A DNA stretch of 64,000 nt from a virus (taxonomy: Duplodnaviria > Heunggongvirae > Uroviricota > Caudoviricetes), in IMG/VR virus record IMGVR_UViG_2737471833_000002. One strand, 5' to 3'. The position numbers were made by a program. Below are positions 39,201 through 45,200 of this stretch, piece by piece. Positions within the stretch are counted from its first letter, which is position 1. Each line of letters starts with the position of its first letter.

Positions 39201-42200
39201 GTAGGGGCGCTATGGATAAGAAAATATGCGTTGTTTCGATGAGCGTCGGCAAACCGGCGTCAATGACTGCTGCATGGATCAACAACGAGCTGATAATGGC
39301 TGAGCGGACCAGCTACCCTGAACGCCGCCGCGATATGGAACTCCAGCTGCTGCGCGAATTGCGAGAAAAAGAGGAAAAGGGTTTTATCGTGCTGGTGGAA
39401 GAGGAAAACAGCTTTATTACCGGTCGAGTTGGCCAGCGTGTAAGGTTGCGTGATCCCTTCATGAACGGCAGACCGGTACTGATTGAAGCAATGCAGATTT
39501 ACAAGGAATTGGAACGCCAGAAAGCGATCAAGTTACCGCGCAAGGAATCCGGCAAATACATCCTTCACCAAAGCATCTTCGATTCCGAACATGACAAAAA
39601 AGGCGATGAATTTTTCAACATCAACTGGAGCGAAATAACGACAGAGCACGTTCTGACGTTGTTATGCTGCTTCGCAACGGAATACAACAACGTTGCCAGC
39701 GCCGACTACATCAGGGCAATGGATGGAGAAGTTGAGGCACGCCAGGAACCATCGTTACTAAGCCCGCTGATTAACATAATTCGCGGCACACAGAGACTTG
39801 CGGAAAAAAGCGTTCCACACGGAATCTTAACTGGGAAGGGAAACTATTTTTAACATCCCCAAATCCTTTTGGGGAACAACTCATTCTTACAATAGCTGCC
39901 CCATACATTGTCTCCAGGCACTCCCCTCATTACCGTTATCAAGAAACGTAGAGGTTGCATAAGGAATGCCTCTGATTTGTGTTGATGTGAATGGACCATC
40001 AGACGTCGAAGTTGTGCGCAGTTTTGATGTAAACTCGTAATTTCCACTGATGCCTTTCTCTGCCAGAGCTTTTGATTTTGTGATAACTAAATCTGCACAT
40101 TTCTCTGCGGCTACATATTGCGGGTCTTTTTCAGCTTTTCCGGCACATGCAGTTATCGTTAAAACGATAGCTGCGGCTAACAAATTACCTAGTTTCATCT
40201 GCATACCTTATTAAGTGCATTAAAAACAGTAGGTTGCCAAGGTTTTAAACAAATTTCAATTCTCCATGACGCTCAACATGAGCAAAAATAACACACAACC
40301 CTCATTGCTCTAATAAATTTGATTTATTAGAGCAAATATCCTACCATTGCGCATAGCCCTATTGATCTCCTTACCGTTCAGGCTTATATTCATGCCGTCG
40401 TAGCAAATTCTGCGACCGGGTTTAGCAGCCTGAATACTTACGCGGACAACCGCAGATATCCGATATTGCGGTATTTTCATGTCCGTATAACCACGTTACG
40501 CCCGAATTATGGTGGGGCGTGATGGGGAGGCTTCGGCCTGCTGGTTTCGTAAGTGCCAGTCTGCTAACCCCGTCACGTCCTGCCACCTGTTTAGCAGCGG
40601 GTCGCAGGTTGTTTTATCAACTTACGAGGCCGTAACTATGGTTAATGCCAATCCTTGCGCACGCCCTGAATTTATCTGGCGCTTTTACTCCTGCCAAAAA
40701 CGTCACTATCACTTCGTTATTGCACCAACAGAAGATGAGGCCCGCTCTCAGCTTCCTGACGCCCCATGTATTTTCTCTGCCCGTTTTTCCACTGATTCAC
40801 GCAATTCTCTCAGTTACTGGTGCCTCCCTGTTAACGCTTCTGCTCAGGAGGGACTATGAGAACGTCATTAGTCACCCGTGAAGAGATGATCGAGGCAATT
40901 GAACAGCACACTGCCTGTATCAGTACCAGGGATATACCAGGCGTTATTGCCAACTACTTCATGATCACCAAACAACTTTACCGGAGAAAGGACAAGAACG
41001 CGGTTCACCGTATCCTGTTGTCTGATATCCGCGAATACCTGCTCGAACAGGGTCATCTGAATTACGCAACCGTCGCAGCCGAAGCACGCAAGGAGGCACA
41101 CAGAATGAAAGCAACTAACGTTAAATCAGAAAAAATTCATGCACCTTCAGTTCAGGAATCGGAGCTGGTGGTTGTTCAGAATCAGTCTGATGAAATTCCC
41201 GTTCTGGAATGGCAGGGAGTGCGTGTAGTGACAACCGAGACTCTTGCTAGAGGGTATGGGACAGAAACAATCCGTATTCGCCAAAATCATCATGAGAACA
41301 AAGTACGCTTTGTTGAAGGGAAGCACTTTTTCAAAGTTGAAGGAGAATCATTGCGCGAGTTGAAGCACAGAGTAGCTTTAAACTACTCTGTAAAAATTGC
41401 TCGCAATGTTCGCTCACTCACCCTCTGGACAGAACGCGGCGCAGCCCGCCACGCTAAAATGCTCGAAACCGATCAGGCATGGGCATTCTTTGAAAAACTG
41501 GAAGACAGCTACTTCCGACAAAAAGAACAGCAACCGATCGCAATCCCCCAGACGCTTCCTGAAGCCCTACGCCTGGCTGCCGAACTGGCTGAACAAAAGC
41601 AACTTCTGGAACAGAAAGCCCACCAGCTAAATCAGCAGCTGGTGGCCGCCGCTCCTAAAGTCGATTTTGCCGACCGGGTATCAGTAGCTAAAGGGATCCT
41701 GATTGGGAATTTTGCAAAGGTTGTTGGACTTAAGCAAAACGCGCTGTTTGTCTGGTTACGGGAGAACGGCATCCTGATTGCGTTCGGTGGACGTAAAAAT
41801 GTGCCGCGCCAACAGTACATCAACGCGGGGTATTTCACGGTGAAAGAAGTGGTGCTGGATGATGAAGATGGCTACCAGATACGGTTGACGCCTCAATTAA
41901 CGGGTAAAGGCCAGCAGTGGTTGACGCGTAAACTGCTCGATGCTGGCTTGTTAAAACCGGTGGCGGCTGAATAATGGAAGAATGCCCGGTTGAGATGCCG
42001 GGCATGATTAAATGTCTCTTCAGCACATTACCGAAGTTCAATCTTCAACCAAGAAGTGGACTCGCATACGATTATCGCAATAAAATACTTGAAGTTTTAT
42101 AAACTGTGAGTATCATTGCCCATATGAAAACATCCTATTTAACTATATTGGCTTTCCATATTCGCGATTTTCGCGAGAAGCATGGTGTTACTCAATCAGA

Positions 42201-45200
42201 CATTGCATCTGGCCTTGGGATAACAAGTGCCGGCTGGGGAAAAATTGAAAATGGTAAGTCCTCTCTCTCTGTAGAGAATATGATGAAATTCTGTAAAATC
42301 ATTAATATTGATGCAACCATACTTCTTGATATTTCCACAAAATCGGCAAAAAACTTAATCAAATGTGGATGGAGTGTATCTTATTCTCCTGTTGAGGATG
42401 ATAATTTAATAGACGGAAAAAATATATTTGCTAAAACACATGGAATGAATAACGTCATGAGGAAATTTATAGACGGGAAACTTGGAAGTGTTTTAGACAA
42501 AGAATTTGATGACATTATTATGAAATATGCAACATTTTATATGGTTGTAGCTAAAAATCTAAGAGATGACTTGATTTAAAAATGGAGTGTACATATGGCA
42601 TACAGAAAAGACAGCGATCTTGAATTCCTAGCTAAATGTAACGACCGTGATCTTGATGATTTAGTTAACCTATTGATTTATGATAACGATGGCAAAAAAA
42701 GATGGACTGAAGAGTTATCTAACAATCGACAATATAAGGAATTTGCACCAAGACATAGCGTATATTGGAGAGAAATTGCTGCTGAAATTCAATGTTATGG
42801 TGGAAATACCATAGCAACTCTCTTGCGTGGTGGTAAAGGGGTCTGCTACAGAGAAATTCTCATTGATGTATGCAATAAGCTAAAGGTTAATTTCAATGCC
42901 AAGAGCCGAATAGAGGTTATTGAACAAAATCTTCTATTAAAAATTCTCAGCGACTCTCTAGATAACATGTCATCCGAAGATATAAAAGTTTTTGCCATGG
43001 AACTTGGATTGGATGAAGTTACAAGATTTACTCCTGAGGCAGTTCTATCTGCCTTCCAATATATTTTCAGGGCCGGCGGTTTCAGATCTTATCAGGTAAC
43101 TCTTAAATTTGCGAATCTTTTACTAAAAATTTTAATTGGACGCGGTTTAACACTCGCAGGTAATCAAATACTCGTAAAAGCATTATCTATTTTAACAGGC
43201 CCAATTGGTTGGGCTATAACAGCCGCATGGACCATTGTAGATGTGGGAGGAACTGCTTATCGAGTAACAATTCCTGCTGTTATTCAAGTTGCTGTACTAA
43301 GGGCGAAAGTCAATAATAATATTAAAGACAGCGATATTACCTTGTGATATTATAACTCCATCCATCAAGGAAGAGGTGCTAATCCTCTTCCTGTAACTCT
43401 ATGATTCCTAAATGTTAATGAGTCAATCAGCATTCAGAAGCAATGCGTTATCTATGATGATCTGCTCCCATTCTTCGAATGCCCGGTCGCGGACGCCCTG
43501 GGGAACGCTGTTTGTTTTGAAATCGACGACCGTCCGCCATTTCCCGTCCGGACGGTACATGCGCAGAGCTTTACTTCCCCCTTCCCTGCGCACCTCAACG
43601 TTATGCTTGTCAGCAAACTCTTGTAATGCTCGTAGCGTCCCATGCTTTACTGTGTAGTATCGCTTTTTCAAGTTTTCTCTCCAGCCTGTGCCAAGGCTTC
43701 AACTTCCAAATCGTAAGACTCAAACTCATAGTCCTGGTCGTCAACTTCTTCAGGCACTGGCAGTAAATGCCAGGCTGAGTATATCTGACCATTATCAAAA
43801 CGCTCCTGGCTGTAGAGCGTCGCGGCTATGAGTGTTAGCGCCGGGCGGTCATAACGGTAAATTTTGCGAACGTCACGGTCAACGAGACGACCGAAATTAC
43901 CATAACCGCGCTCCAGTAATAATTTTTTAATTTCCGGCCAGTATGGACCATAGCTGCGGTACAGGCGGGGATTTTTCAGTAATCGCCCGCGTAGCCCTGA
44001 CAGGAAGAAATCAACGTATTCGTCTTCTGTTTTTCCTAACAACGCTGTACGGAGTACCGCCTCAAGATATGTTTTATTCGGTTTTATTGTATCAGATAGT
44101 GTGACCATATTATGCGACGCCCGGCGAACCGGGCGCTCCTGTTATGCGTATTGTTGGATGACGGCCAGAACGTCCGCCACGTTGTGTTTTGTCTCGATAA
44201 TCCACCAGTTACCCGGGAAATCGCTGTTCTTCGCCTTCGCTGGCAGCCAGCGAGCACCGAATTTCGCCTTGATTGCGTCTTTCGCACGGAAAAGAACGCC
44301 TTTCATGCCTGAGGCTTCCTGAAGCCCAAATACCTCGCCAGCGGCGAATTTTGGTGCGTACATCATCTTCAGGTCGGCGGTGGATACGCGATAATTCAGA
44401 CCAAGAGACTGAGCTATGCTGGTGGCATCACCCTGTATTGATGATAACTCTTCTTGTTTCTCGTTTCTGGCGGCAATTTCTTCCTCCGTGATGTTGCCAA
44501 GGGCCAGGTTTATCCGATCAGCGTCGGCCTGTTTCTCTTCATCGGTGCGCCCGGCAAGAACCGTGTTAATTCTCTGCAATATCTCCACATGATTCTTGCG
44601 CATGCTGAGCAATTCCGGCGTAACCTCGTTAAGATCCACCAGCCCAAGGATGGCAAGGTCGGAAAACATTGATACCAGGTTGTAGGTCATGCGATAGCTG
44701 AGTTGACCATAGGCTGATGGCAACTTCACCGCATCTTTTTGATAGGCATCCATAAATTTAGAGCCGTCGTTTACGACATCCGCAATTGCCGGTGTGATTT
44801 TCCCTGTGGTGGCGGCCTCCCTGATTGCTGTTACCCACGATTGAGTCAGCGCGGCGACTGCATGATTCAGATTGGCTTTCCGTTCTGCTGCAATGCGCGC
44901 GCTTGCTGCGTCCATTGCCTGCTTGATCTCGTCTTTATTGCTGTAAATGCCAATGGTGCCAAACTGTGCTGTGGTGATCTCATAATCTGACGCCCGGAAC
45001 TCATTGGTACCGAAAATAGCATTGGTGACCTCAAGTTCAGAATCCCCGTTACGAGTAGCCCCCTGGCTTGTTTTCTCCGGCATTTTTGCGATCGCATCCG
45101 CTATTTTCTCCTGAATTGCTTCAGGGGATAGCGTATCTCCGTATGACGCGATTACATCGCCATAATTGGAGCCAAACAGTTCAACCAGGAATGTTTCTGC

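Follow-up and report, generated by a model that had tools for sequence, protein, structure and literature searches.

Proteins of the YaaW family now go by the name JukA, which denotes the sensor protein of Juk ('jumbo phage killer'), a defence system against jumbo phages (Li et al., preprint 10.1101/2022.09.17.508391; published version Cell 188:2127, 2025). When a phiKZ-like nucleus-forming phage injects, JukA relocalises within minutes to the injection site and recruits the effector JukB, and the infected cell is rescued (10.1101/2022.09.17.508391). Juk immunity blocks early phage transcription. According to two 2026 reviews of the Cell version, JukA senses gp241 of phiKZ at the early-infection vesicle, JukB is a tetrameric pore that permeabilises this vesicle, and JukA alone is protective in some cases; JukA is placed by review in ~21% of proteobacterial and cyanobacterial genomes. 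Here we consider a 64,000-nucleotide stretch of viral DNA (IMG/VR record IMGVR_UViG_2737471833_000002, hereafter the window), a P1-like phage-plasmid carrying a two-gene cassette, xre-jukA, in the interval where P1 has its restriction-modification (R-M) genes.

Altogether 17 jukA operons from other bacteria were tested in the Juk preprint (10.1101/2022.09.17.508391). The closest of the described systems is Jo6, an Escherichia operon given there as 'jukA;HTH-XRE' (JukA WP_121372120.1), which provided immunity specific for phiKZ-related phages (10.1101/2022.09.17.508391, section 10, Suppl. Table 4). Deletion analysis found the JukA of Jo6 alone to be sufficient, and tolerated without the Xre partner, and the protein relocalised to the infection site; the phage genome was not degraded when infection was arrested (10.1101/2022.09.17.508391). 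Using the first 369 nucleotides (nt) of the synthetic construct as a query, we located Jo6 on the 94-kb plasmid NZ_CP085065.1 of E. coli P31_YH1_02.21.

The JukA encoded in the window is 73% identical to that of Jo6 (180/248 positions, gap-free), and the accompanying Xre is 66% identical to the Jo6 partner (WP_223363313.1) across all 151 amino acids (aa), C-terminal domain included. The match to the PADLOC JukA profile PDLC04113 is full length (E 4.7e-66, residues 2–242 on profile positions 4–241 of 245). From these identities and this match we consider it likely that the cassette is an Xre-JukA member of the JukB-less Juk defence subtype, providing Juk-type anti-jumbo-phage immunity via an autoregulated operon. 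A sequence-only reading of the window had suggested defence as the functional class, with which both the PADLOC match and the orthology to Jo6 agree. It had also held that the pair had no described function, which has to be given up, for this is not an unknown system: the function of the family is already known, the 66–73% identical Escherichia operon is active, and a protein 98% identical to the window JukA (WP_000331517.1 of plasmid p321-pO111) is listed in the preprint's table of JukA homologues. We found no paper dealing with JukA together with phage-plasmids. What is new here is modest, and consists of the conserved pairing of xre with jukA, the place in the P1 R-M slot, the capture of the module by two phage-plasmid lineages independently of each other, a candidate operator within a conserved promoter, and a regulator whose mRNA is probably leaderless.

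JukA and its tested relatives

The gene jukA (42595–43347, plus strand) encodes a 250-aa protein and is preceded by the Shine-Dalgarno sequence GGAG (42584–42587, plus strand, as read from the DNA), 7 nt before the ATG. In Pfam the protein matches both DUF3944 (PF13099; E 3.5e-13, residues 3–37 on profile positions 1–35 of 35) and the Cbp3-like family PF03981 (E 3.8e-8, 34 bits vs a gathering score of 21.5, residues 56–227), confirming the resemblance to YaaW/UPF0174 that had been proposed from its terminal motifs, and some sources do name close homologues 'YaaW (UPF0174 family)'. It also matches PADLOC PDLC04111 (E 1.4e-62) and phrog_13238 ('unknown function'; E 2.6e-168). Pfam and PADLOC profiles, which had been put forward as a check, thus lead to JukA and to defence, and the neighbourhoods of homologues resemble mobile or defence islands (see below), though the 'uncharacterised' status of the family does not survive. 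There are more than 1400 homologues at E<=1e-5, the best 120 of which are still 54–98% identical, and their hosts include Enterobacterales, Pasteurellaceae, Neisseria, Helicobacter and Vibrionaceae.

Several residues, among others G69, N71, R78, G80, G82, Y85, E87, D91 and E110, are invariant across 44 aligned JukA homologues. A core motif, E[IL]Q.[YF]GGN[ST]...R..G..Y.E[IV]..DV, is common to the window JukA and the experimentally active JukAs, whose N-termini we took from translations of the partial synthetic operons in the preprint supplement, leaving out the Jo1 fragment, which was out of frame. Over ~120 N-terminal residues the window JukA is 22–27% identical to enterobacterial and Stenotrophomonas JukB-coupled JukAs, 42% to that of Rhodospirillum, 44% to that of Jo24, which is inactive, and 72% to that of Jo6; it is thus nearer to the Jo6 protein (73%, full length) than to JukB-coupled JukAs (22–42%, N-terminal ~120 residues). 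Loss-of-function mutations in the JukA of P. aeruginosa PA14 lie at N66/S67, R73/K74, Y79 and E104 (10.1101/2022.09.17.508391, supplement 'JukAB mutants' sheet). The spacing of GGNT(69-72)...R78...Y85.E87...E110 in the window fits this numbering with a one-residue offset, which suggests a tentative mapping of these residues. The structure model of the protein is of moderate confidence, with a predicted local distance difference test score (pLDDT) of 66, with a hydrophobic segment (160–218) below 50; the hydrophobic C-terminal third (residues ~170–235) reaches a Kyte-Doolittle 19-residue maximum of 1.56, which is borderline for a transmembrane segment.

PF03981 is the Cbp3 cytochrome-b chaperone family, and a DUF2541-yaaW operon (Jo5) as well as several other jukA operons gave no immunity. 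Both would suit a jukA carried along as a passenger, either serving as a YaaW/Cbp3-like chaperone of the housekeeping type (e.g. in membrane protein assembly) or inactive, and in both cases without immune function. We regard this as very unlikely. The window protein scores 113.5 bits (E 1.2e-32) against the NCBIfam model NF007593 (PRK10236, 237 positions), the cut-off of which is 395, and by this measure it is a related family member and not an orthologue of the chromosomal YaaW of E. coli; as shown above, it is closest to the active Jo6 protein. Both open reading frames (ORFs) are moreover intact and 98–99% conserved across 8 genomes, and the cassette lies in a defence slot, with homologues in mobile or defence islands. 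The library label of NF007593, 'acidic protein MsyB', looks inconsistent with the length of the profile and with the match; it may be a labelling error and was not relied on.

A different question is which phages the cassette acts against. The spread of JukA (>1400 homologues; ~21% of proteobacterial and cyanobacterial genomes) far exceeds the known host range of nucleus-forming phages, and the panel tested consisted exclusively of Pseudomonas phages. The cassette could then be a defence with a target in E. coli other than phiKZ-like jumbo phages, JukA sensing what other phages or mobile elements eject, for instance the Dar proteins injected by rival P1-like phages, with the activity against phiKZ a cross-reaction. 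We think this unlikely, as all active jukA operons were specific for phiKZ-related phages across a 28-phage panel (10.1101/2022.09.17.508391), and the authors of that study ascribe the wide distribution of JukA to under-sampling of jumbo phages (10.1101/2022.09.17.508391).

The Xre partner and the control of the operon

The first gene of the pair, xre (42124–42579, plus strand), encodes a 151-aa Xre-family helix-turn-helix (HTH) protein (Pfam HTH_3, E 8e-9), as had been recognised, followed by a helical C-terminal domain of ~80 aa; the extension as a whole measures ~80–85 aa, and not the ~90 aa estimated from the sequence. Its start is the ATG at 42124, which is that of RefSeq (WP_000858461.1), and all homologues begin MKTS. 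The GTG at 42106, which would give a 157-aa protein, was rejected on both grounds and lies inside the promoter. Both ORFs are co-directional, and 15 nt separate the stop codon of xre from the ATG of jukA. In the AlphaFold2 model of Xre (pLDDT 84.5) the N-terminal ~70 residues superpose on the R-M controllers C.BclI, C.Esp1396I and C.AhdI at ~1.2–1.6 Å, in keeping with a match to the PADLOC 'Control_protein' profile (E 6.5e-6), and the helical C-terminal domain gave no informative structural match.

The family to which this partner belongs is small, with 16 clusters at E<=1e-3, all from Enterobacterales where the source names an organism. In eight of eight informative homologue loci, representing six homologues (47–59% identical) from Enterobacter, Pectobacterium, Serratia, Rahnella and one metagenome, the HTH gene lies 9–16 nt upstream of a 250–262-aa DUF3944/PF03981 gene. 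Two further Klebsiella loci, reached from the JukA side, have the same xre-jukA layout. Upstream of one close JukA homologue, that of Salmonella diarizonae, no full-length HTH gene is called. Several loci have integrase, resolvase, ParE, HsdM, AbiEii and PIN genes as neighbours, which are typical of mobile or defence islands, and several adjoin prfB-lysS. Judged from this gene order, the Xre-JukA pair is a conserved, dedicated module. In some chromosomal islands with Xre-JukA we also observed a second HTH_3/HTH_31 gene nearby, of ~152–158 aa (L006 4716-6049; L008 9907-10383), which in Enterobacter is divergent from an unannotated 250-aa gene and could represent a paralogous module.

A putative sigma-70-type promoter, TTGAAG-N16-TATCAT (42089–42116, plus strand; 9/12 in a consensus scan), precedes xre, with the hexamers and spacing that the sequence-only reading had given. 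The scan by itself does not exceed chance, giving 9 sites in the region vs 5.9 +/- 2.3 in shuffled sequences. We infer the promoter instead from its conservation across genera: in an alignment of 7 loci (Escherichia, Enterobacter, Pectobacterium, Serratia, Rahnella and a metagenome) a 30-nt block, ACTTG[C/A]AGTTTTATAAACTGTGAGTATCAT (window 42087–42116), is ~90% conserved, as opposed to ~52% for the DNA further upstream, and this block contains both the -35 and the -10 hexamer.

The spacer of this promoter holds a palindrome, AAGTTT-tat-AAACTG (42092–42106, plus strand), that is a candidate Xre operator. The family consensus is CAGTTT-N3-AAACTG; in Pectobacterium, Serratia and Rahnella both 6-nt arms are perfect, and the central 3 nt vary. 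In the window 5/6 arm pairs are kept, and the promoter spacer of Jo6 has a weaker palindrome. This pattern of conservation suggests that the palindrome is likely to be the operator through which Xre represses its own operon. In the window the xre ATG follows the -10 hexamer by 7 nt without a Shine-Dalgarno sequence, as it does in two other plasmids of the lineage, and because of this the xre mRNA is probably leaderless there. The loci from other genera do have a Shine-Dalgarno sequence, placed between the -10 hexamer and the xre ATG, and in Jo6 the xre leader has GGAGG.

A role for Xre beyond this regulation has also to be considered. Its ~80-aa C-terminal domain is conserved and confined to a small, JukA-linked family, one review counts 'transcriptional regulators' among JukA-associated effectors, and Juk immunity blocks early phage transcription, all of which would fit an Xre that is itself the effector: JukA would recruit it to the DNA of the incoming phage, and the HTH and C-terminal domains of Xre would there shut off early phage transcription. 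To this we give very little credence: in Jo6, with proteins 66–73% identical, immunity was intact after deletion of the Xre partner, the conserved palindrome in the operon's own promoter points to autoregulation, and the JukA homologue of Salmonella diarizonae comes without a full-length upstream HTH gene call.

Still more doubtful, and in our view extremely unlikely, is a toxin-antitoxin-like addiction module in which an Xre antitoxin and a JukA-like toxin stabilise the phage-plasmid with no antiviral role. Though the layout, a small HTH gene and then a larger gene on a low-copy plasmid, would suit such a module, and the HTH of Xre does show weak matches to antitoxin models (HipB-type, PezA, HigA, MqsA), the best of these matches (TIGR03070) reaches 33 bits vs a cut-off of 71.65, and the scores for the PezA, HipB, HigA and MqsA models are also far short of the curated cut-offs, with matches confined to the generic HTH region. 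Pfam finds no toxin domain in JukA, and in the tested homologue Jo6, JukA without Xre was both tolerated and protective. P1-type elements have an addiction module of their own, phd-doc, which also counts against a second one here. The earlier suggestion of a regulator-effector, abortive-infection or toxin-like system fares no better, as Juk rescues the infected cell and JukA alone suffices in Jo6.

For the transcription of the cassette in a lysogen, its surroundings are informative. A search of the window for C1 operators found none inside the cassette and a perfect one before the upstream icd-ant operon. The latter should be silent in the lysogen via C1 and C4, which fits a cassette relying on its own promoter. 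At the other end, an inverted-repeat search gives a 9-bp G+C-rich hairpin, AGGAAGAGG-N7-CCTCTTCCT (43368–43392, plus strand), between the convergent genes jukA and lxc, and the RNA fold of 43345–43425 has -19 kcal/mol (z = -2.95). A terminator scan called no intrinsic terminator after jukA, the hairpin being without a T-run; it is at most a possible terminator.

The mat-lxc slot and the capture of the cassette

Comparison with P1-like plasmids that lack it delimits the cassette to ~42005–43424. In an alignment with the empty site of p95JB1A it appears as a 1.42-kb indel, almost the same coordinates as those at which a two-gene AT-rich cassette had been noticed between mat and lxc (42010–43422). 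The antirepressor gene of p95JB1A runs straight into lxc, with homology stopping at ~42004 and restarting at the lxc stop codon, ~43423–43425. A hairpin at 41982–42005 is part of the upstream icd-ant module and is present in the empty site of p95JB1A too. Neither terminal repeats nor a duplicated target site were found at the ends of the cassette, apart from a 7-nt TAAATGT seen by eye near both. The GC content of the cassette, 0.355, is the minimum of all 1.42-kb stretches in the window (mean 0.48, standard deviation 0.034), and the lowest 300-bp segments reach 0.31–0.32. The low GC relative to the backbone is thus as described before, with the figures for the genes somewhat higher (33% for the HTH gene and 37% for jukA, not 28–33%).

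The cassette is rare. Whole copies at 99–99.6% identity are carried by 7 PLSDB plasmids, and of 5426 complete E. coli genomes 8 have it at 99.2–99.6% identity, always on plasmids of ~96–104 kb. Taking lxc-ulx as the mark of a P1-like element, which 699 of the same 5426 genomes have, about 1% of these elements (8/699) carry it. A search of deposited phage genomes found no copy of the cassette, the flanks alone giving matches. The Jo6-type cassette occurs in 5 complete genomes, exclusively on plasmids of about 94–95 kb. The horizontal acquisition proposed earlier is supported: this is an accessory cassette that has entered a defence slot which varies among P1-like elements.

The cassettes of Jo6 and of the window have the same two-gene layout, with gene products of 151/152 aa and 250 aa and similarly low GC (~0.36 in both), and they share 70.8% DNA identity over 1229 bp, including the -35 and -10 hexamers. 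Both are found on P1-like phage-plasmids, but the Jo6 backbone is only distantly related to that of the window, with aa identities of 50% for the portal, 43% for the head-processing protease and 40% for the head protein. The slot also differs: Jo6 lies beside TnpB and HicA, before a head gene, whereas the window cassette lies between mat and lxc. Diverged cassettes in different slots of distantly related backbones imply that two versions of Xre-JukA were captured independently by two P1-like lineages, and therefore that it has been acquired at least twice. In NZ_CP085065.1 we also note that genes for a TnpB-family RNA-guided endonuclease, for a HicA toxin and for a 143-aa product (4841–6682 of our extract L004) precede the Jo6 cassette, a region that looks like a small accessory island in the distant P1-like backbone.

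Several features mark the element in the window as P1-like. The genes ref (Pfam RecA_dep_nuc, E 6e-48), mat, lxc, ulx and that for DarB (2255 aa) stand in P1 order, the P1 C1 operator has 16 matches vs 0.26 expected by chance, and C4 antisense RNAs and tRNAs were also found. The left border of the variable slot is mat (maturation control; 39185–39853, plus strand), assigned from its position and from annotation in related plasmids and P1, and the right border is the P1 core gene lxc (43423–43671, minus strand), which is 95–99% identical in DNA to lxc of P1, P7 and SJ46 and is followed by ulx (43668–44108) and darB (44142–50909), both on the minus strand.

What lies between mat and lxc varies among relatives. 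In P1 and P7 it is the type III R-M genes res and mod, in vB_EcoM-Ro157c2YLVW two hypothetical genes, and in p95JB1A a lipoprotein-like ORF and an icd-ant module with nothing else. In the Salmonella phage SJ46 the interval has a RelA/SpoT-family gene ('GTP pyrophosphokinase'; L016 7840-8961), which may be a toxSAS-type defence and is further evidence for the interval as a defence hotspot. The notion that the cassette replaces res and mod is right as to the slot and incomplete as to its contents, as the slot in the window has two further occupants, an ORF of lipoprotein type and a complete C1-operator/c4/icd/ant module.

The lipoprotein-like ORF (105 aa; 39887–40204, minus strand) has a signal …LTITAC…, matches phrog_16031 ('unknown function'; E 7e-72) and nothing in Pfam or NCBIfam, and is conserved in related plasmids, cassette-free ones included, where it likewise forms the slot's left end. 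Directly upstream of the cassette follows a second, complete immI-like module (40304–41974), found at >=80% coverage in ~56 of 5426 complete E. coli genomes. It comprises C1 operators (40304–40336; a perfect one at 40304–40320 and a divergent partner at 40320–40336), c4 targets (40384–40436; Rfam c4-a1b1), a C4 antisense RNA (40505–40590, plus strand; 70.8 bits), an icd-like gene (40638–40859, plus strand) and an ORF6N+KilAC antirepressor gene (40856–41974, plus strand).

Two observations elsewhere in the window may be added. Another C4 antisense RNA (33312–33399; 75 bits) adjoins an isrK-type RNA (33189–33267), and 33189–33399 is presumably the regular immI region of the element, which would thus have two c4 loci. 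Within a second low-GC island (~0.37), a gene for a 370-aa OmpC/PhoE-like general porin (55447–56559, minus strand; NCBIfam OmpC subfamily E 1.1e-158, above cut-off; Pfam Porin_1 E 1.3e-147) adjoins ssb (54725–55213), and by carrying such an accessory porin a phage-plasmid could change the availability of receptors for other phages.

Proposed mechanism and comparison with known systems

Each of the four alternatives set out above is less likely than defence by Xre-JukA, mainly because JukA alone is tolerated and sufficient in Jo6 and because the antitoxin and chromosomal YaaW models score far below their cut-offs. In the mechanism that we propose, a sigma-70 promoter of its own would drive the operon in a P1-like lysogen, whatever the state of the C1/C4-repressed icd-ant operon nearby, with Xre made, probably from a leaderless mRNA in this lineage, and binding CAGTTT-N3-AAACTG in the promoter spacer to autoregulate the operon, as C proteins do for R-M; conservation is our reason for proposing this regulation. 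JukA would be the immune protein and, to judge from its 73%-identical homologue, would be diffuse in uninfected cells. On injection by a nucleus-forming (phiKZ-like, Chimalliviridae) jumbo phage it would concentrate at the injection site through recognition of a phage protein, early or ejected, on the early-infection vesicle, and would then arrest the infection before the phage nucleus forms, with survival of the cell. The host of the phage-plasmid would in this way gain a defence against phages that are beyond the reach of restriction enzymes.

Several points weigh against this interpretation. The functional data come from the 73%-identical homologue, in P. aeruginosa PAO1 and with Pseudomonas phages, so that the activity of the window copy is argued by analogy. 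Several JukA-only or non-JukB operons, for instance Jo24, gave no immunity (10.1101/2022.09.17.508391), and the inactive Jo24 JukA is ~44% identical to that of the window over the N-terminal 123 residues; membership of the family is accordingly no guarantee of activity. The canonical effector JukB appears to be absent, a PADLOC scan of the immediate neighbours and of the antirepressor-like gene at 40856–41974 giving no match at E<=0.1, and the downstream neighbour of jukA is the convergent P1 core gene lxc, so that the two-gene JukAB arrangement is not found. System rules in the style of PADLOC or DefenseFinder would probably not report the cassette as a complete Juk system. The model of JukA matched no solved structure, Cbp3 included, which leaves any mechanism without structural support, and the promoter, operator and leaderless start are all deduced from sequence.

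A more far-reaching version of the defence can be imagined, in which JukB-less JukA on P1-like phage-plasmids is a distinct, regulated mechanism. The conserved C-terminal domain of Xre would sense a signal, such as infection or the lytic switch of the element itself, and gate the expression of JukA, and JukA would recognise the ejected proteins of a set of phages wider than the phiKZ-like ones, possibly Dar-type internal proteins of rival P1-like phages. It would thus be an 'ejected-protein sensor' encoded by a prophage, arresting infection without an enzymatic effector. This is speculative and, in our estimation, distinctly improbable.

If the Juk assignment is right, phage-plasmids have acquired a defence against restriction-shielded phages, and one lineage carries it in the interval that holds type III R-M in P1. 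This is relevant to the question of which Enterobacteriaceae nucleus-forming jumbo phages can infect, and to phage therapy with them. There are consequences for annotation as well. RefSeq labels the products 'DUF3944 domain-containing protein' or 'YaaW family protein' and 'helix-turn-helix' regulator, and PHROGs gives 'unknown function'; the pair can now be labelled an Xre-JukA cassette, of a kind that callers demanding JukA and JukB probably skip. With a conserved promoter palindrome and a small dedicated Xre family, the regulation of JukB-less Juk systems becomes directly testable.

Among described systems, the canonical JukAB of P. aeruginosa PA14 (PA14_03360/03350) has the same JukA domain architecture and core motif as the window and presumably the same trigger logic, in which early or ejected jumbo-phage proteins are recognised at the infection site. 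The two differ in how infection is stopped: JukAB permeabilises the early-infection vesicle via the JukB tetramer pore, whereas JukA-only systems arrest infection without degrading phage DNA. The chromosomal YaaW of E. coli, encoded in a DUF2541-yaaW operon, is of the same Pfam family and of similar length to the window JukA, but its partner is DUF2541 and not Xre, and the DUF2541-jukA operon Jo5 gave no immunity (10.1101/2022.09.17.508391). To Cbp3, the mitochondrial cytochrome b assembly chaperone, there is a family relation through PF03981, though the biology differs.

For the regulator, the nearest comparison is with the C proteins of R-M systems (C.BclI, C.Esp1396I and C.AhdI), which like Xre have an HTH fold, are encoded by a small gene upstream of a defence gene, and have a palindrome overlapping their own promoter. 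Xre differs in its extra ~80-aa helical C-terminal domain, in a sequence identity of ~20% and in its adjacency to jukA and not to R-M genes, and by analogy it probably works like a C protein without being a member of that family. The defence itself can be set beside EcoP1I and EcoP7I, the res and mod products of P1 and P7. These occupy the same mat-lxc interval and have the same prophage-expressed defence role, with proteins and a mechanism unrelated to those of the window cassette: R-M cuts unprotected DNA, whereas the phages that JukA is expected to stop are nucleus-forming ones, which, according to the Juk literature, shield their DNA from R-M.

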